From assembly GCA_049287185.1 (NCBI GenBank), contig JBAQFI010000014.1, forward strand, positions 1-56,956: a DNA stretch of 56,956 bases, in the 5' to 3' direction. The stretch's first letter is position 1; every line of letters starts with the position of its first letter. The notes below the pieces were generated by a model. That model ran no database searches. It had not been told where the DNA came from and worked only from the letters and a program-made list of their open reading frames with translations. Source of the stretch: Minisyncoccia bacterium (lineage in GTDB: Bacteria; Patescibacteriota; Minisyncoccia; Phycocordibacterales; GWA1-40-21). Positions 4,888 through 56,815 of the stretch are shown piece by piece. Made by a program: the position numbers and the translations under genes.

Positions 4888-5005
4888 GGTCACAGGTTTT
4901 TTCTTGCTAGAAAAACTCGCGACCCCGCCTCGCGCCGTCGCGCTCCGGCTCGCACACTGCAAACCAAAACCACCAGGTGTCTGGTGGTTTTTAATATTTG
5001 CAGTG
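4888..5005 (-). repeat. tRNA-3'-end-linked structured element, type A body (Lys copy)
   Basis: Directly 3' of tRNA-Lys there is a long hairpin plus T-run, followed by the conserved blocks GGCGGGGTCGCGAG, a hairpin and GTGACC. The same blocks occur in the His, Val and Ser copies. Confidence 0.7.
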
Positions 5006-5078
5006 TGCGCCCAGTAGGAATCGAACCTACGACCAATTGCTTAAAAGGCAACTGCTCTACCAGCTGAGCTATGGGCGC
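5006..5078 (-). tRNA. tRNA-Lys (anticodon UUU)
   Basis: Manual cloverleaf: GCGCCCA acceptor, GCTCAGCTGGTAGAGC D arm, anticodon loop CTTTTAA, T arm GTAGGTTCGATTCCTAC. No CCA is encoded. Confidence 0.9.
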
Positions 5079-5217: not shown

Positions 5218-5664
5218 ATGAAAAAACTCATTATTGTAAGACACGGTCACTACGGAGACGATTTACGTCTTAATGACTATGGTCGCTCTGCTATTAACAC
5301 ACTGGCTACCAAGTTGGTACCGGAAGTTAATGAAAAATCAAGACTCATTCTCACTTCTACAGCCGATCGGGCTCGTGAAAGTGCGGAAATTATGAGTATT
5401 GTTTTGGGCACGAGATACGAGGAACATAGGGTTCTTTGGTCCGACAGTGAACATAATTGGAATTTGGTTTGGGCATTGAACTTGGTTCATAAGCACGAGC
5501 ATGTTGAAATTCTGACCCTCGTCACTCATTTTGAGTACGCAGAATACTTCCCGTCCTATTTTGGAAAGGAATTTCTAAAAACAGAGTTCAAGTCCCATGA
5601 GATCAATAAAGCTGAGGCATGGATTATTGATTGTCCACTGAAAACCCTGAGACATGTTTGTTAG
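5218..5664 (+). CDS. histidine phosphatase superfamily protein (PGAM-like), short form
   Basis: RHG motif (IIVRHGHYG), second Arg (TADRARESA), distal His (LVTHFE). GGATGGGGG RBS. Confidence 0.7.
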   Translation: MKKLIIVRHGHYGDDLRLNDYGRSAINTLATKLVPEVNEKSRLILTSTADRARESAEIMSIVLGTRYEEHRVLWSDSEHNWNLVWALNLVHKHEHVEILTLVTHFEYAEYFPSYFGKEFLKTEFKSHEINKAEAWIIDCPLKTLRHVC

Positions 5665-16081: not shown

Positions 16082-16326
16082 TTGGTCGTATCTAAACGAC
16101 CTAGTAGTAAGGCACGAAAAATCCTCACACTAGGAAGGTTTTTAAGCCTATGTATCAGTTTCCCAATACAACGCACGATACGCCCTAATATGAGGGTTTT
16201 CTGTATCGTGCGATTATTGACCGTGCCACCAGCAAAAGCTAATGGGTTAGGTCCTACGGAATATTCAGTTGTCCATTAATATTAACATTTACAGGGCTTT
16301 CTGCAATAAATAAGTTACCAACTGCA

Positions 16327-50537: not shown

Positions 50538-52313
50538 ATGACAAATATGAAGAAACAACTAGAAAAAAGTATTTCACAAGCACTAAAAAAACTTAGTGTA
50601 GCACATAGTGTTTTTTCTCTTGAGCATCCTGATGACCTAAACCATGGTGACTATTCAACCAATGTAGCTCTAGTCTATTCTAAAGATTTAAAGACCTCAC
50701 CACGACAATCAGCTGAAAAAATTCTCGTAGAACTCCAAAAAACTAAAATTCCTAATGTCTCAAAAATTGAAATTGCTGGCCCAGGTTTTATCAATTTCTT
50801 TTTAATGCCTGATTTTTTTACCAAAGAAATAAATAAAATTGCTAAAATTGGAAAAAACTACGGTGCTAACAAAAGCCGAGCAGGGGAGAAGATAATGATT
50901 GAATATACTGATCCGAATGCTTTTAAACAGTTTCATATTGGGCACTTAATGGCTAACTCAGTTGGGGAAACTATTTCTCGTTTGTTAGATTTTTCTGGCG
51001 CTAAAGTTATTCGTGCTTGTTATTCTGGGGACATCGGTCTCCATGTAGCTAAAGCCATCTGGGGTTATCAAAATCTAGATAAAAAAATAGTAAACAAAGA
51101 AACAAAAGCACGTATTTATGAAGAAGATAAAGAAATTCTCACACACGACGATGAATTAAAATTCTGGGGACTAGCCTATGCCTTTGGTTCTTCGGAATAT
51201 GACGGTAACGAAACAGCCAAGTCAGAAATTGACGAATTAAATAGAAAACTATATTCCAAACCAGAAGGAGAGATTAAAAGACTCTATGATCAAGGTCGGG
51301 AAATAAGTTACAGACATCTCAATGAAATATACACTTTACTCGGCACAAAATTCAATATTTTTTTCTTTGAGTCGGAAGTTCAGGGAAGAGGTTTGTTTTT
51401 AGTAAATAATAATTTGGAGGATGGTATCTTTGAAAAGAGTGACGGAGCTATTGTTTTTCGAGGTGAAAATTATGGCTTACACACTCGAGTTTTTGTCAAT
51501 AAATTGGGTTTACCGACTTATGAAGCTAAAGAGCTGGCTCTAAATATTAAAAAATTTGAATTAGAAAAAGATTTAAAGCAGTCTATTATCGTGACCGCTC
51601 ATGAACAATCGGATTATTTTAAAGTAGTTTTGAAAGCTTTGTCTCTCATAAACCCAAATGTTGCTGAAAAGACTAAACATGTTGCTCACGGTATGTTGCG
51701 TTTTTCTACTGGTAAAATGTCTTCTCGAAAAGGAAATATCGTAACCGGTGAATCCATGATTGAGGACGTCGAGGCTTTGGTAACTCAAAAAATAAAAGAT
51801 CGAGAATTGAATGAAAAGGAGAAAAAAGAAATTACTGAGAAGGTAGCCGTGGGAGCCATCCGCTACTCCATTCTAAAACAACAAGCTGGTAGCGATATTA
51901 TTTTTGATTTTGATAAATCTATCTCTTTTGAAGGTGATTCTGGTCCATATCTGCAGTACACCACTGTCCGAGCTAAATCTATTTTACAAAAAGCTAAACA
52001 AGAAGGTCTAAAATTTGGTCTGTCTGCTAAGATTCTGGGAGTAAAAAATACCGAGGAAACCTGTAAACTAGAAAAAATGTTATATCGTTTCCCTGAAGTC
52101 GTTGAACGCTCACAGAAAGAATATTCATCACACTATTTAGCAACATTTCTCACCGAAATCGCTTCGGAATTTAATTCTTATTACGCGAACCACAAGATTG
52201 TGGAAAAAGGGGAGAAGAAGAGTTTATATCGTTTACAGTTAACCAGGTCTGTCTCTATTGTTTTAGAAAATGGTCTTAATTTGTTGGGAATTGAAGTACC
52301 GGTGAAGATGTAA
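50538..52313 (+). CDS. argS: arginine--tRNA ligase
   Basis: Class I HIGH-like FHIGHLM, anticodon-binding DALR-type C-terminus, overall ArgS layout. Confidence 0.9.
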   Translation: MTNMKKQLEKSISQALKKLSVAHSVFSLEHPDDLNHGDYSTNVALVYSKDLKTSPRQSAEKILVELQKTKIPNVSKIEIAGPGFINFFLMPDFFTKEINKIAKIGKNYGANKSRAGEKIMIEYTDPNAFKQFHIGHLMANSVGETISRLLDFSGAKVIRACYSGDIGLHVAKAIWGYQNLDKKIVNKETKARIYEEDKEILTHDDELKFWGLAYAFGSSEYDGNETAKSEIDELNRKLYSKPEGEIKRLYDQGREISYRHLNEIYTLLGTKFNIFFFESEVQGRGLFLVNNNLEDGIFEKSDGAIVFRGENYGLHTRVFVNKLGLPTYEAKELALNIKKFELEKDLKQSIIVTAHEQSDYFKVVLKALSLINPNVAEKTKHVAHGMLRFSTGKMSSRKGNIVTGESMIEDVEALVTQKIKDRELNEKEKKEITEKVAVGAIRYSILKQQAGSDIIFDFDKSISFEGDSGPYLQYTTVRAKSILQKAKQEGLKFGLSAKILGVKNTEETCKLEKMLYRFPEVVERSQKEYSSHYLATFLTEIASEFNSYYANHKIVEKGEKKSLYRLQLTRSVSIVLENGLNLLGIEVPVKM

Positions 52314-52592: not shown

Positions 52593-53174
52593 ATGAATGA
52601 ACAGAAACAGATTGCGAAGCTACACGCTATTGTATTGGAAAATCTTCCGGAGATGACTAGCGAGCTGAGACAGGGATTAATCGTTAATCCAAAAAGGGTG
52701 AAGATTTTTCTTTCCGGTATAACCGATGTTGCTCTTGAAAAGATAGTTATTGTTACCCACAAATTTAATGACCGGATCGACTACAACCGTTTTTTTGATG
52801 ACTTTGTTAAAGCCGGAATGTACACTGGTGTAAGTGAGGATATGATTGACAAAAACTTTCCTTCTGTTGAAACCGGAAAAGGAGAAATTGAGTATGTTCT
52901 GTTTCACTTTAATCGCAGTATTTCTGAAGATGAAGTGATTGAAAAAATGGCATTGTCGGGTTGTGTGCGGCCAACAATGAAAGAATTTCTGAATTTTGGG
53001 GAAAAACACCCAGAAATTCAGAAGGAATTTACTATTATAGCTTCTGGCATTGTTTTTCGAGACTGTTCTCGAAAAAATTGTTTCATCAGTCATAGATTCT
53101 TAGGAATGAGTAAAATCAATGGTGGCCGTTGGAATGGTGACTGTCGTTTCCTCGCCGTCAAAATCAGTAAATGA
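52593..53174 (+). CDS. hypothetical protein
   Basis: 193 aa ORF downstream of a strong promoter with an AAGGAAAAAA RBS-like tract. No family is recognised. Confidence 0.5.
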   Translation: MNEQKQIAKLHAIVLENLPEMTSELRQGLIVNPKRVKIFLSGITDVALEKIVIVTHKFNDRIDYNRFFDDFVKAGMYTGVSEDMIDKNFPSVETGKGEIEYVLFHFNRSISEDEVIEKMALSGCVRPTMKEFLNFGEKHPEIQKEFTIIASGIVFRDCSRKNCFISHRFLGMSKINGGRWNGDCRFLAVKISK

Positions 53175-53290
53175 TCTTTGTTTCAACGTAGGCCCTTCGT
53201 ATATCTTGCCTTGGCAAGCTCTATATTGAAGGGTCTTTTTTATTTCCATTTCTAATGACTTTTTTTGGTTTTTTTGCTATCTTTAGACGT

Positions 53291-56200
53291 ATGAGCGCCG
53301 AAATAGAAAAGAAAGATATCAAGAGTCAGATTGCGGAAAAGGAAGAAAAAATTCTGGAATTTTGGAATAAAGAGAAAATTTTTCAGCAAACTTTAGATAA
53401 AAAATCTCCTAAAGGCGAGTATGTTTTTTACGATGGTCCACCTTTTGCCACTGGCACACCACATTATGGTCATCTTCTCGCTGGAACTATCAAAGATGTT
53501 ATTCCACGTTATAAAACTATGTGCGGTTTTCACGTTCGTCGTCAATGGGGCTGGGATACACACGGATTGCCAGTCGAAAACTTGGTAGAAAAGGAATTTG
53601 GTTTAAAAAACAAAAAAGATATTGAAGATTTTGGAGTAAAGAAATTTAATGAGGCCGCGCGCGCCAGTGTTTTGCGTTATGCCGAAGATTGGAAAAAAGT
53701 CGTGCCAAGAATGGGACGTTTTATTGATATGGAAAATGATTACCGCACCATGAACTCTTCTTACATGGAAACAGTAATGTGGATTTTCAAGCAATTACAC
53801 AGCAAGGGTTTAGTTTATGAAGGTTTTAAATCTATGCACCTCTGTCCGCACTGTGGTACTACACTATCAAACTTTGAAGTGGCCCAAGGCTATAAAGATA
53901 TAACCGATATTTCTGCGACCGCCAAGTTTGAATTGATTGATGAACCTGGGACTTTCTTCCTCGCTTGGACAACTACTCCTTGGACCTTACCTGGTAACGT
54001 TGCTCTCGCCGTAAATCCCGATATTGATTACGTAAAAATTAAAGTCGGAGAAGTTTTTTATATTTTAGCCGAAAAACGCTTGTCGGTTATTAAAGATACA
54101 TACGAAATTGTAAATAAAGTTCAAGGTAGTGAACTGATTGGCAAAAGCTATAAACCACTTTTTGATTATTACACAAAAGCTCAACCGCCAATTGAAAATA
54201 TCGGTAATGGTTACAAAGTTTACCCAGCCGAATTTGTCACCACTGAAGATGGAACGGGTATCGTGCACATCGCCCCAGCTTTTGGTGAGGATGATTTGAA
54301 ACTTGGACAAAAATTTAAATTGCCGTTTATTCAGCATGTCAGCTTTGATGGCAAGATGAAGCCAGAAGTAACGGATTTTGCAGGGCTAATGGTCAAACCA
54401 GCTACCAAAGAGGGAGAAAAGGACTCGCAACAAAAAACTGATATTGAAGTGATTAAATATTTAGCTGGTAAAGGTACTCTTTTTGCTAAAGAAAAATTTA
54501 TTCACTCCTATCCGCATTGTTGGCGTTGTGAAACTCCACTATTAAATTACGCGACCTCATCTTGGTTTGTAGAAGTGACGAAAATTAAAGACCAGCTAGT
54601 AAAAATAAATAGTAAAATCGGTTGGGTACCACCAGAAATAGGTGATGGACGTTTCGGTAAGTGGTTAGAAGGGGCTAGGGACTGGGCGATTTCTCGCTCA
54701 CGTTATTGGGGAGCACCGTTACCAATTTGGCGCTGTGCCGATTGTGAAAAAACGGAAGTTTTTGGCAGTATTAAAGAAATTAAAGAAAAGATTGGTGCAA
54801 AAAACAAATATTTTGTAGCTCGTCATGGCCAAGCTGAGAATAATGTTTTGGGTATTTTAAGTTGTGATCCGAAAAGACCACATCACTTGACTGAACTGGG
54901 CAAAAAACAAGTTAAGAATAACGCTGATTCTCTAAAGAAAAAAGGAGTCAAAATTGACCTCATTATTTATTCTCCATTTGTTCGTACAGAAGAAACCGCT
55001 GAAATTTTTGCTAAAGAACTTGATGTAAATAAAGAAAGCATGATTGAAGATAATCGCTTGCATGAGGTTAATGCTGGAATCTTGGATATGCATTCCGATG
55101 CCGAATATCAGGCCTTTTTTGGTACCAGAGAGGAAAAGTTTTATAAAGTGCCAGAAGGTGGCGAGAGTCATACAGACGTAAAAAATCGCATGACCTCGGT
55201 TCTCTATGATTTACACGAGAAATATTCTGGTAAAAATATTTTGCTTGTGACTCACAATACACCAGCTTGGCTTATGTTTGCCGGAGCGGAAGGTGATACA
55301 CCAGAAAAAGCGATTGAACTTCGTCATGAAGCTCATGACTTTATCAAAAACACGGAAATAAAAGATTTGGAATTTGTACCATTACCACATAATGATAATT
55401 ATGAATTGGATTTTCATCGCCCATATATCGATGAAGTAAATATTCCTTGTCAGTGTGGTGGCACAATGAAGCGAGTTAAAGAAGTTTTTGATTGTTGGTT
55501 TGAATCCGGATCTATGCCTTATGCCCAATATCATTATCCATTTGAAAATTTGGATAAGTTTAATCCAGAAAAGGGAATTGGTTTCCCGGCTGAGTTCATT
55601 GGTGAAGGGTTGGACCAGACTCGAGGTTGGTTTTATTCCATGCTCATTATTGCAGTTGGACTTTTTGAACAAACATCATACAAAAATGTTATCGTTAACG
55701 GAATTATTTTAGGTGAAGATGGACAAAAGATGTCCAAACGTTTGAAAAATTATCCTGACCCGATGTATGTCGTTTCCAAATATGGTGCCGATGCTTTGCG
55801 TTACTCATTATTGGCTAGCCCAGTGGTGAAAGCCGAGGACATGATTTTTTCTGAAAAGGGAGTAGACGAAGTAGTGAAGAAATTAATCATGAGACTAAAT
55901 AATGTTTACACTTTTTACGAAACCTATAAATCAGAGGAAGAAAAAATTGCTAATCCAAAATCCAGGAATGTTTTAGACGTCTGGATTGCCGTTCGTCTAA
56001 AAGAATTAGCAGTAACAGTTTCTTCAGCGCTCGATCGCTATGAATTAGATAAAGCGTCTCGACCTTTTGCCGATTTTATTGATGATCTTTCTACCTGGTA
56101 CTTGCGCCGTTCCCGTGACCGTTTCAAGTCGGATGATTTGAAGGATAAAAAACTAGCCGTAGAAACTAGCCGTTGGGTTCTGTTTGAAACCGCCAAGGTT

Positions 56201-56815
56201 CTAGCACCTTTTATGCCTTTTCTGGCTGAATCCCTATGGCAAAACCTAAAGACAAGCAAAGATGAGGTCAGTGTTCATTTAACCAATTGGACAGAATTTG
56301 TTGAACTTACGAAAGACGAAAAAGACATCCTGACCCAGATGGCCGAAGTTCGTAAAGCGGTTTCCCTCGGTTTAGAAGCACGAGCCAAATCTCAAATTAA
56401 AGTGCGTCAACCACTTTCCAAATTAACTCTTAAGGATAAATCTTTAGCTAATGAAAAAGAATTAATCGATTTAATTATTGCGGAAGTAAATGTTAAGGAA
56501 GTTAATTTTGACGAAAAAATTCCAGAGGCGGTTATTCTTAATACAGAAATTACTCCAGAATTAAAGGCCGAGGGAATGTTTAGAGATTTGGTTCGAGCGG
56601 TCCAAGATTTGCGTAAGACCAAAGGCTTGGCAGTGGGGGAAGAAGCTATCTTAACAATCGGAACCGACAATACCGGACGCCAATTTGTGGAGAAAAATTT
56701 AACAGAGTTATCTAAAGTTGCCTCACTAACTAAAGTTGAGTTTAAAGAAAAAGGGGAAATGGAAGTAATCGCTATTGAAGATTTAATTTTCGAATTAAAT
56801 TTGATGAAGAATTAA
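53291..56815 (+). CDS. ileS: isoleucine--tRNA ligase (type 2) carrying an inserted histidine-phosphatase domain
   Basis: HYGHLL (HIGH), KMSKRL (KMSKS), editing CP1 domain, zinc-binding CxxC pairs. The start is set at MSAEIEKK (the ORF opens at 53255). An extra domain of about 190 aa sits at 54805-55370. Confidence 0.95.
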   Translation: MSAEIEKKDIKSQIAEKEEKILEFWNKEKIFQQTLDKKSPKGEYVFYDGPPFATGTPHYGHLLAGTIKDVIPRYKTMCGFHVRRQWGWDTHGLPVENLVEKEFGLKNKKDIEDFGVKKFNEAARASVLRYAEDWKKVVPRMGRFIDMENDYRTMNSSYMETVMWIFKQLHSKGLVYEGFKSMHLCPHCGTTLSNFEVAQGYKDITDISATAKFELIDEPGTFFLAWTTTPWTLPGNVALAVNPDIDYVKIKVGEVFYILAEKRLSVIKDTYEIVNKVQGSELIGKSYKPLFDYYTKAQPPIENIGNGYKVYPAEFVTTEDGTGIVHIAPAFGEDDLKLGQKFKLPFIQHVSFDGKMKPEVTDFAGLMVKPATKEGEKDSQQKTDIEVIKYLAGKGTLFAKEKFIHSYPHCWRCETPLLNYATSSWFVEVTKIKDQLVKINSKIGWVPPEIGDGRFGKWLEGARDWAISRSRYWGAPLPIWRCADCEKTEVFGSIKEIKEKIGAKNKYFVARHGQAENNVLGILSCDPKRPHHLTELGKKQVKNNADSLKKKGVKIDLIIYSPFVRTEETAEIFAKELDVNKESMIEDNRLHEVNAGILDMHSDAEYQAFFGTREEKFYKVPEGGESHTDVKNRMTSVLYDLHEKYSGKNILLVTHNTPAWLMFAGAEGDTPEKAIELRHEAHDFIKNTEIKDLEFVPLPHNDNYELDFHRPYIDEVNIPCQCGGTMKRVKEVFDCWFESGSMPYAQYHYPFENLDKFNPEKGIGFPAEFIGEGLDQTRGWFYSMLIIAVGLFEQTSYKNVIVNGIILGEDGQKMSKRLKNYPDPMYVVSKYGADALRYSLLASPVVKAEDMIFSEKGVDEVVKKLIMRLNNVYTFYETYKSEEEKIANPKSRNVLDVWIAVRLKELAVTVSSALDRYELDKASRPFADFIDDLSTWYLRRSRDRFKSDDLKDKKLAVETSRWVLFETAKVLAPFMPFLAESLWQNLKTSKDEVSVHLTNWTEFVELTKDEKDILTQMAEVRKAVSLGLEARAKSQIKVRQPLSKLTLKDKSLANEKELIDLIIAEVNVKEVNFDEKIPEAVILNTEITPELKAEGMFRDLVRAVQDLRKTKGLAVGEEAILTIGTDNTGRQFVEKNLTELSKVASLTKVEFKEKGEMEVIAIEDLIFELNLMKN
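54805..55370 (+). other. histidine phosphatase (PGAM-like) domain embedded in IleS
   Basis: YFVARHGQAENN (RHG), YSPFVRTEETA (second Arg), GGESHTDV and LLVTHNTP (distal His). The flanks are canonical IleS sequence: WRCADCEK upstream and DFHRPYIDE...DCWFESG downstream. Confidence 0.8.

Follow-up and report, generated by a model that had tools for sequence, protein, structure and literature searches.

Aminoacyl-tRNA synthetases are among the best-studied enzymes, and the accessory domains of their eukaryotic forms are well known. The isoleucyl-tRNA synthetase (IleRS) encoded in the window (the whole analysed stretch of DNA, 56,956 nucleotides) shares its fold with the solved type-2 enzymes, the mupirocin-resistant type, of Priestia megaterium (IleRS2, 8C8V), T. 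thermophilus (1ILE) and yeast (8WND), with TMt values of 0.83-0.92. Its identity to the solved type-2 IleRS is ~31-35%, and it has in common with them the HIGH, KMSKS and CP1 editing motifs and the DUF5915-type C-terminal domains; the zinc knuckle of CP3 also occurs in T. thermophilus IleRS (PMC7191050). In the solved IleRS the tip of CP3 is bare, whereas in the window IleRS it bears a second enzyme domain of ~196-202 residues.

This additional domain resembles PspA (4IJ5/4IJ6), PhoE/YhfR (1H2E), Rv2419c (4QIH), CobC (6E4B) and the Aquifex HFP (9MMH), with TM values of 0.74-0.77. It shares with these proteins a size of ~200 aa, the Arg-His...Arg...Glu...His set and a capped pocket, but is merely 20-25% identical to them, the phosphoserine phosphatase PspA included. 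The PspA/PhoE-type enzymes are free-standing and metabolic, while the subfamily of the insert is located in or beside IleRS (3 of the 32 assessable stand-alone genes lie elsewhere). The joint-best NCBIfam match of the insert is NF005567, the bifunctional RNase H/acid phosphatase of the Rv2228c type (E 3e-20, approximately equal to an archaeal dPGM model). However, NF005567 enzymes are end-to-end fusions with another partner, while the insert is internal and scores 73 bits against a cut-off of 326. A curated precedent for IleRS with an extra enzymatic domain is NF040702 ("ileS_w_GNAT"), although its guest is an N-acetyltransferase and not a phosphatase; on the window protein this model gives 307 bits against a cut-off of 1999, through the IleRS parts alone.

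The synthetase gene and its inserted domain

The features of the gene are as follows (conservation refers to a sample of 89 homologues with 38-86% identity):

53255..56815, + strand: ileS, predicted type-2 (eukaryote/archaeal-like) isoleucyl-tRNA synthetase with inserted domain; continuous ORF, 1186 aa
53462..53473, + strand: HIGH motif (HYGH), aa 70-73; H73 at least 90% conserved in the 89 homologues
53855..54514, + strand: CP1 editing domain, approximately aa 201-420; limits by analogy with ScIleRS and CaIleRS (PMC7955072, PMC7191050)
54734..54745, + strand: CP3 zinc knuckle, first half, C494-x2-C497; Cys in 76/89 and 72/89 homologues
54791..55378, + strand: predicted inserted histidine-phosphatase domain (branch 1, PhoE/PspA-like), aa 513-708; from PF00300, AF2 and Foldseek
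54821..54829, + strand: RHG motif, with R523, H524 (predicted phospho-accepting nucleophile) and G525; R523 and H524 in 89/89, G525 in 84/89
54983..54985, + strand: R577, second phosphate-binding arginine (SPFVRTEETA); 88/89
55064..55066, + strand: E604, predicted general acid; E in 86/89, D in 3/89
55253..55255, + strand: H667, second catalytic histidine (LVTHNTP); 89/89
55448..55456, + strand: CP3 zinc knuckle, second half, C732-x-C734; Cys in 76/89 and 73/89 homologues
55727..55741, + strand: KMSKS-type motif (KMSKR), aa 825-829; K825 and K828 invariant

Judged by its sequence, ORF 53255-56815 is a type-2 IleRS without the bacterial type-1 zinc-binding C-terminus. The ileS equivalog model TIGR00392 scores 863.4 bits (cut-off 621.4) in two stretches flanking the insert; Pfam assigns PF00133, PF08264 and PF19302, and a PF00300 match splits PF00133 in two. 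The closest PDB matches in both sequence and structure are eukaryotic IleRS and IleRS2, type-1 enzymes scoring far lower. The AF2 model of the full-length protein (pLDDT 92.8, pTM 0.87) has IleRS2 8c8v as its best Foldseek match (TMt 0.83), and the linkers to the insert are short and ordered in it. The CP1 editing motifs have the layout W238-TTTP-T244 (Thr-rich) and G333-x-G-x-x-H338, where W238, T239-T241, P242, T244, G333, G335 and H338 are invariant in the homologue alignment; D347 is conserved in at least 90%. With two Cys4 zinc knuckles kept besides HYGH, KMSKR and the CP1 motifs, the synthetase parts flanking the insert are intact, as the sequence-only reading had maintained. The strings quoted in that reading all lie in this one continuous ORF: PIWRCADCEKTEVFGSIKEIKEK (aa 490-512), ARHGQAENN (522-530), SPFVRTEETA (573-582), GGESHTD (635-641), LVTHNTP (664-670), DFHRPYIDE (719-727) and EVFDCWFESGSMPYA (743-757).

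CP3 spans residues 459-526 in ScIleRS (PMC7955072) and 473-534 in CaIleRS (PMC7191050), and it has a zinc motif in T. thermophilus IleRS (PMC7191050). In the alignment to human and yeast IleRS, query residues 516/517 correspond to chain residues 495/496 and query residue 719 to 498/499, which reveals a clean in-frame insertion of ~202 aa between residues adjacent in those enzymes. In ScIleRS numbering, the insertion falls at residues ~496-499, within CP3. A comparison with the homologue P0372, which is without an insert at CP3, puts the domain at ~aa 513-708 (nt 54791-55378); its size is ~196-202 residues, with the upper end at 708 or 718 depending on the comparison used. Within the second half of the Rossmann fold, the CP3 zinc hairpin carries the phosphatase domain at its tip. 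The coordinates proposed earlier (54805-55370) fall within this range, though shifted by one base relative to the reading frame.

The Pfam model PF00300 (His_Phos_1) matches aa 520-692 of the full protein with E 8.7e-28 and 97.7 bits (cut-off 21.7), and the excised insert segment with E 2.7e-29 and 102.7 bits. The insert alone is modelled by AF2 at pLDDT 96.8, and Foldseek aligns this model to 4ij6, 9mmh, 6s2q, 1h2e and 4qih within the TM range given above, the probability being 1.00 for 4ij6, 1h2e, 4qih and 6e4b. The best matches are all small-molecule histidine phosphatases, and the insert carries a two-helix cap, as they do. Both the HMM search and the predicted structure, suggested earlier as checks, back the fold.

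The full catalytic signature of histidine phosphatases, also claimed from the sequence, is present: R523/H524, R577, E604 and H667 are conserved in 86-89 of the 89 homologues. R523, H524, G549, S573, E637 and H667 are invariant (89/89), and the strictly conserved positions of the insert are all generic to the superfamily. Mean identity to the window protein is 0.44 for the insert, 0.46 for the anticodon-binding domain and 0.35 for the C-terminal domain. On the grounds of sequence and modelled structure, the insert is a member of the histidine phosphatase superfamily, branch 1, and its conserved residues suggest that the domain is apparently active.

Assignment to a narrower family was less successful, since the NCBIfam equivalog models (dPGM, CobC, SixA, PspA, PhoE-like) are all far below cut-off on the insert. 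For phosphoglycerate mutase (dPGM), the best model, NF038349, reaches 72.8 bits against a cut-off of 225, the others being lower, and the domain has ~196 aa versus ~250 aa; the earlier term "PGAM-like" fits the fold only. The SixA phosphohistidine phosphatase model TIGR00249 gives 50-54 bits versus 74.5 and aligns to the N-terminal ~80 residues and nothing more. A true CobC or PspA is rejected because the curated cut-offs are far from reached, and an anti-phage defence component because PADLOC yields no meaningful match.

An intein can be dismissed too, in agreement with the sequence-only reading: Pfam detects PF00300 alone in the insert, with no Hint or endonuclease domain, and the junction residues are not intein-like. 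The insert begins with I513 rather than Cys/Ser; after PHN (aa 711-713) comes D714, and a similar LPRND occurs in P0372, which has no insert there. An assembly chimera or a pseudogene is contradicted by the continuous frame and by identical junctions recurring in hundreds of independent assemblies. Since the arrangement recurs in hundreds of independent genomes, the insertion is not a chance feature.

Distribution and linkage to ileS

The IleRS with an inserted phosphatase is widespread in Patescibacteria, contrary to the rarity implied by the sequence-only reading. PF00300 is present in all 120 of the best 90%-identity clusters. Among the 50%-identity clusters, 234 representatives were obtained with E<=1e-30 and the architecture occurs in more than 150; nearly all of the best 150 representatives match across both junctions in one stretch. 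A scan of GTDB genomes with a profile built from a 7-sequence alignment revealed at least 80 species genomes with full coverage, mainly Paceibacteria/Parcubacteria, and 553 stretches were confirmed as relatives. In public databases both Pfam domains are automatically attached to the architecture. Full-text literature searches for any description of an IleRS-phosphatase architecture returned nothing relevant. For a bacterial synthetase it is unusual, and apparently undescribed, to hold a second catalytic domain within its Rossmann-fold body and to conserve it over a very large clade.

The insert has relatives at a second position of IleRS, "site B", which is empty in the window:

55928..55954, + strand: loop aa 892-900 before the anticodon-binding domain (site B); AF2 pLDDT dips to 76

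In P0372, the phosphatase domain lies between the counterparts of window aa 891 and 901, and some IleRS have the phosphatase in both places or in tandem. Sister lineages encode a stand-alone ~190-aa phosphatase directly upstream of an insert-less ileS in 29 of the 32 assessable cases. Altogether, the 80 metagenome loci comprise 41 with the embedded form, 29 with the gene directly upstream of ileS, 3 with the gene elsewhere and 7 that are unassessable. The stand-alone homologues of loci L083-L089, situated directly upstream of insert-less ileS, are 40-42% identical and share the KNKYFxxRHG start. In 12 of 13 distinct pairs, ileS starts -29 to +15 nt from the phosphatase stop; three ATGA overlaps occur. 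In a neighbour-joining tree, the ileS-adjacent stand-alone phosphatases nest among the inserts, generic phosphatases being outside. The embedded and stand-alone states appear to have been switched several times. Each insert-bearing locus has a single copy of the IleRS-linked phosphatase, and so does the whole window. As an indicator of RNA binding, net charge gives no consistent signal, since the pI of the domain ranges widely (5.3-10.0); the stand-alone forms are basic (pI 8.5-10.4), while the inserted ones are near neutral or acidic (5.9 in the window).

The phosphatase subfamily is tied to IleRS in three ways: insertion into CP3, insertion before the anticodon-binding domain and operon adjacency. 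The occurrence of second-site, tandem and adjacent-gene forms marks the phosphatase as a dedicated genomic partner of IleRS.

Three further genes of the window bear on this linkage:

50538..52313, + strand: argS (arginyl-tRNA synthetase), conserved upstream neighbour; found by tblastn in 44/82 related loci
52593..53174, + strand: 193-aa ORF at the position of the relatives' stand-alone phosphatase; not a phosphatase
5218..5664, + strand: 148-aa ORF, remote SixA-like candidate member of the histidine-phosphatase superfamily; PF00300 sub-threshold

The conserved neighbours of ileS are the housekeeping genes recO, argS and glyS and a gene for a DUF7619 membrane protein; a conserved kinase was sought in this neighbourhood and none was found. 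The synteny argS-[phosphatase]-ileS-recO also occurs in the loci with a stand-alone phosphatase, and the adjacent argS and glyS never carry a phosphatase domain. We rejected ORF 52593-53174 as a degenerate stand-alone phosphatase because it has no Pfam match and no homologue in the 82 related loci; PADLOC gives no match to it either. ORF 5218-5664, proposed earlier as a stand-alone paralogue of the insert, proved to be at most a remote relative outside the IleRS-linked subfamily: it scores 18.9 bits with PF00300 (cut-off 21.7) and E 0.73 in BLASTP against the insert, has no PDB sequence match and is missed by tblastn with the IleRS-linked phosphatases, while an hhalign comparison with the insert profile yields 95% over 61 columns. 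In related genomes, it is the ~190-aa gene directly preceding ileS that represents the true stand-alone counterpart of the insert.

Possible role of the phosphatase

We consider it probable that the window encodes a functional type-2 IleRS with a complete ~196-residue histidine phosphatase which was internalised from an upstream gene and is a partner of IleRS. The inserted domain would be a small phosphatase that in related Patescibacteria is still a separate, ileS-coupled gene upstream. Presumably, it removes phosphate from a phosphomonoester via a phospho-His524 intermediate, where R523, R577 and H667 may hold the phosphate and E604 may act as the acid. As the separate gene directly precedes ileS in related bacteria, IleRS and the phosphatase probably work together, and the latter may be a stoichiometric module of IleRS instead of an unrelated passenger. 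On this view, a tRNA end bound in the synthetic site is a less likely substrate than a small phosphorylated metabolite or nucleotide, because the domain has the two-helix cap typical of small-molecule members and tolerates two distant positions in IleRS or existence as a separate protein. The roles put forward in the sequence-only reading (alarmone hydrolysis, tRNA end repair and regulation) are hypothetical.

In an unlikely scenario, the IleRS reaction itself would supply the substrate of the phosphatase, which might, for example, take a 3'- or 2'-phosphate (or the product of an opened cyclic phosphate) off the ends of damaged or toxin-modified tRNA(Ile) prior to charging, or hydrolyse a nucleotide by-product at the enzyme. 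We know of no member of the histidine-phosphatase family that repairs RNA ends, and the capped small-molecule architecture, with close structural neighbours that are all metabolite phosphatases, points away from such a role. Yet all three configurations link the phosphatase specifically to IleRS, the stand-alone forms are basic, and the RNase H/acid phosphatase match is an example of such a domain fused to an enzyme of nucleic acids. Short ordered linkers in the AF2 model suggest a fixed geometry of the phosphatase, and the insert starts ~35 residues past the CP2-CP3 linker, which lines the tRNA A76 pocket in ScIleRS (PMC7955072). Conversely, the inserted forms are near neutral or acidic, the yeast IleRS-tRNA paper describes no CP3-tRNA contact, and site B lies at the start of the anticodon-binding domain, distant from the acceptor end; the cap and this distant second site make the tRNA 3' end held in the synthetic site a somewhat less likely target.

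The metabolic nature of the structural neighbours (PspA, PhoE, Rv2419c, CobC and HFP) would equally suit an ordinary phosphatase with a function unrelated to IleRS, moved from the neighbouring gene into permissive loops by local rearrangements in a compact operon and kept as a cost-free fusion. Neighbours in an operon of a compact genome need not be functionally related, and their proximity makes a local rearrangement into ileS more likely; the fusions might thus stem from mutational opportunity and not from a shared function. Both insertion sites are surface loops (the CP3 tip and the low-pLDDT loop 892-900), the argS, recO and glyS neighbours form a mixed housekeeping cluster, and three of the assessable stand-alone genes are away from ileS. 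However, internal insertions that spare both enzymes are rare, while here they recur at two sites, in tandem and in double forms, persist across lineages with IleRS identity down to ~38%, and leave the neighbouring argS and glyS untouched; the switches between the two states apparently also stayed with ileS. We regard such an unrelated passenger as quite improbable. Least plausible, indeed very improbable, is a regulatory or non-catalytic domain which senses a phosphorylated metabolite, dephosphorylates a protein (IleRS or its partner) or is purely structural. SixA, PGAM5 and Sts-1 are protein phosphatases of the same superfamily, and the packing predicted by AF2 is rigid; but SixA-type protein phosphatases have no cap, unlike the insert, the SixA model remains sub-threshold, the neighbourhood offers no conserved kinase, and full conservation of the catalytic set speaks against a purely structural role.

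A bolder form of the partner hypothesis, in which IleRS of Patescibacteria has the phosphatase as its obligate catalytic partner for a previously unknown step of isoleucine-tRNA metabolism, appears rather doubtful to us. If it were true, the candidates would be conditioning or repair of the tRNA(Ile) end, or hydrolysis of a phosphorylated compound that poisons or misdirects IleRS, and the switching between separate subunit and inserted domain would reflect selection keeping both active sites together. The separate-gene form represents a natural split system, which makes the role of the phosphatase for IleRS directly testable.

Annotation and protein engineering

At NCBI these proteins are named merely "class I tRNA ligase family protein". 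Phosphoglycerate-mutase-type HMMs match the insert below threshold, so that it could mislead them at permissive thresholds. When the metabolism of Patescibacteria is reconstructed, vague naming and possible mutase-type miscalls can both introduce distortions. Of interest to protein engineering, IleRS tolerates the insertion of a domain at CP3 and in the loop preceding the anticodon-binding domain.

Host synthetase and inserted phosphatase

The ileS product in the window is a type-2 (eukaryote/archaeal-like) isoleucyl-tRNA synthetase (IleRS). In sequence and structure it resembles eukaryotic IleRS, T. thermophilus IleRS and Priestia IleRS2 most closely, whereas type-1 bacterial IleRS score far lower on both counts. 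In Pfam, the catalytic class-I domain is split in two by PF00300 and followed by Anticodon_1 and DUF5915, and the NCBIfam ileS equivalog is matched in two pieces (863 bits, cut-off 621). Both the CP1 editing motifs and two Cys4 clusters (C197/C200/C422/C425 and C494/C497/C732/C734) are preserved intact, and the two groups are scored as invariant or at least 90% conserved in 89 homologues; the sequence-only reading, which had described the HIGH, KMSKS-type, CP1 and zinc motifs as intact, was right on this point, and every peptide string it quotes is encoded by this frame, in the place it indicated.

Features and catalytic residues of the window IleRS (A1, alignment of 89 full-length homologues, 38-86% identity)
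53255-56815, +: ileS, 1186 aa, single uninterrupted frame
aa 70-73, +: HIGH motif (HYGH), intact; invariant or at least 90% conserved in 89 homologues
aa 825-829, +: KMSKR, intact; invariant or at least 90% conserved in 89 homologues
R523, H524, G549, S573, E637, H667: invariant in A1 (n = 89)
R577: 88/89 in A1
E604: 86/89 in A1, plus three Asp

In the alignment to solved structures, query 516/517 corresponds to residue 495/496 and query 719 to 498/499 of human/yeast IleRS; since these are neighbouring positions, about 202 residues have been inserted. Comparison with P0372, a relative lacking the CP3 insert, assigns the “LPxND..E.D.HRP” segment to IleRS itself, which limits the actual guest domain to aa 513-708 (nt 54791-55378). 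The earlier coordinates, 54805-55370, fall within this feature, although one base out of frame. In yeast IleRS, CP3 has been delimited as residues 459-526 (PMC7955072), and in Candida IleRS as 473-534, with a zinc motif in T. thermophilus CP3 (PMC7191050). This places the insertion point (yeast ~496-499) within CP3, where it separates the CxxC half of the zinc knuckle from the CxC half. In the full-length AF2 model (pLDDT 92.8, pTM 0.87) both flanking linkers are ordered, which suggests that the predicted attachment is fixed rather than floppy.

The insert matches His_Phos_1 (PF00300) at aa 520-692 with E 8.7e-28. Modelled alone (pLDDT 96.8), it aligns in Foldseek at TM 0.74-0.77 to small monomeric/dimeric members of branch 1 of the histidine-phosphatase superfamily, including Hydrogenobacter PspA, Aquifex HFP, mycobacterial hydrolases and Rv2419c, PhoE/YhfR and CobC; similar phosphatases are matched at the sequence level. 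The catalytic set is complete (R523-H524-G525, R577, E604, H667). The core of the initial reading, an in-frame histidine-phosphatase insertion, is right and agrees with Pfam, NCBIfam and the structure alignment, and its exclusion of an intein is borne out by the absence of a Hint or endonuclease domain in Pfam and by junctions that are not intein-like. The label “PGAM-like” holds for the fold only: the curated NCBIfam models for phosphoglycerate mutase, SixA, CobC and PspA all score far under their cut-offs. Host and guest show every testable mark of their families, type-2 IleRS and branch-1 histidine phosphatase respectively, and each is a bona fide member.

Mean identity to the window is 0.44 for the insert and 0.46 for the anticodon-binding domain, which we regard as equal, and lower (0.35) for the C-terminal domain. 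Judged from these sequences, such conservation is what one would expect of an active enzyme rather than of a passenger in decay.

The separate gene and the second insertion site

Searching with the insert alone retrieved free phosphatases of ~190 aa, which are 40-42% identical to it, share its “KNKYFxxRHG” start and are as near to it as the inserts of distant IleRS. All four examined (P0387, P0389, P0390, P0391) lie directly upstream of ileS on the same strand, and the downstream ileS is insert-less (949-968 aa). The order argS – phosphatase – ileS – recO – membrane protein – glyS-like is common to these four loci and the window, while remoter free phosphatases (32-38% identical) occur in unrelated gene contexts.

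State of the phosphatase in 80 metagenome loci (scan seeded with free forms)
41/80: embedded in ileS
29/80: free, immediately upstream of ileS
3/80: free, other gene follows; one of the three still adjoins argS
7/80: not assessable

Of 13 distinct pairs, 12 have -29 to +15 nt between the stop codon of the phosphatase and the start of ileS, and three show ATGA overlaps. Besides the insert, no further copy was detectable within ~6 kb of 82 insert-bearing loci or in the whole 57-kb window, and at none of these was the domain present in neighbouring argS or glyS. Free phosphatases that adjoin ileS are nested among the inserts in a neighbour-joining tree, with generic phosphatases outside.

With the insert columns removed, “separate” and “embedded” lineages interleave in the IleRS tree (loci L083-L171). 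For example, the separate-type IleRS of L115 is 66-67% identical to embedded-type enzymes and only ~45% to the separate-type clade L083/L085. Pairwise identities of phosphatase and IleRS are modestly correlated (Spearman 0.38). These data, with neighbour-joining trees that carry no support values, tentatively suggest several switches of state, the phosphatase always staying with ileS. Such switches would have moved an upstream gene into or out of one and the same CP3 position.

In some IleRS, this phosphatase type is found at another place, a loop leading from the stem-contact region to the first helix of the anticodon-binding domain (the second site; window aa 892-900).

Multi-domain and second-site variants
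P0372: phosphatase at second site only
P0313, P0358, P0341: phosphatase at CP3 and second site
P0323: tandem phosphatase pair in CP3

Loci of such variants include L081 and L082 (the latter that of P0358); the called neighbours at L082 include DAHP synthase and an SLH-domain protein, which are unexpected in a Patescibacteria genome.

Possible working of the inserted enzyme

Fold, insertion site and conservation of the catalytic set are shown here, together with genomic links to IleRS of three independent kinds. The insert would be an active phosphomonoesterase with H524 as phospho-acceptor, by the established mechanism of the superfamily, and would serve IleRS as a module or partner. That its role is purely structural is unlikely, as the catalytic residues are invariant, and the idea of a pure passenger enzyme functioning apart from IleRS is weakened by fusions that recur and persist.

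As to the substrate, we lean towards a small molecule or nucleotide rather than the tRNA end in the synthetic site, since the models and Foldseek give the domain a two-helix cap as in metabolite phosphatases, it occurs at two distant IleRS positions or on its own as a separate protein, the inserted copies show no consistent basic charge, and the paper on yeast IleRS-tRNA describes no contact of CP3 with the tRNA. A role at the tRNA end or coupled to the reaction is possible: the free forms are basic, and the insert starts ~35 residues past the CP2-CP3 linker, which lines the A76 pocket (PMC7955072). The pI is 8.5-10.4 in the free phosphatases P0387-P0393 and near neutral in the inserts (median 6.6, window 5.9); this difference could mean that binding to the acidic IleRS body, or to RNA, is no longer needed once the domain is tethered.

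Distribution and neighbouring observations

The architecture had been assumed to be rare, yet a search with the full protein gave PF00300 in 120/120 of the best clusters at 90% identity. When one genome per GTDB species was scanned, at least 553 related stretches were confirmed, the best 80 of which all span the whole insert and both junctions. Exhaustive scanning of 1.84 billion representatives yielded 234 clusters at E<=1e-30; in almost every one of the top 150, a single stretch of match runs through both junctions. Where a source is named, it belongs to Paceibacterota, Minisyncoccia, the Parcubacteria lineages Wolfe-, Nomura-, Taylor-, Lloyd-, Vogel-, Zambryski- and Campbellbacteria or, in one case, Peregrinibacteria. 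Some carrier genomes have designations from early series of groundwater metagenomes (“GW2011” Wolfebacteria, for example), which means that the sequence was already in databases, where the proteins are named “class I tRNA ligase family protein” (NCBI) or “isoleucyl-tRNA synthetase” (JGI). Full-text literature searches found no description of IleRS with an inserted phosphatase. The combination is real, widespread, unremarked in databases and without a described counterpart. Among the nearest precedents, RNase H/acid phosphatase (NF005567) is fused end to end, and the NCBI “ileS_w_GNAT” model represents IleRS with a different extra enzyme.

Three short proteins (P0023, P0021, P0034; 195-249 aa), encoded on long contigs of up to 733 kb, combine PF00133 with PF00300 and may represent frameshifted or naturally split ileS, broken inside the insert.

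Other features of the window
5218-5664, +: 148-aa ORF with N-terminal RHG motif, adjoining tRNA-Lys (5005-5078, -)
52593-53174, +: 193-aa ORF between argS and ileS
16135-16253, -: full-length match to the LOOT RNA family (RF03000)

The ORF at 5218-5664, previously taken for the free paralogue, is under the Pfam threshold (hhalign 95% over 61 columns) and is probably a remote SixA-like histidine phosphatase; the real counterpart of the insert is the ~190-aa gene upstream of ileS in relatives. The 193-aa ORF occupies the exact place of that gene, and has no Pfam or PADLOC match and no homologue in 82 related loci. On the contig of P0122, the closest homologue (IleRS 86% identical), a reverse-transcriptase (RVT_1) gene lies directly upstream of ileS, replacing argS or the 193-aa ORF at this position. 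At 74.9 bits, the LOOT match exceeds the gathering score of 46.4.
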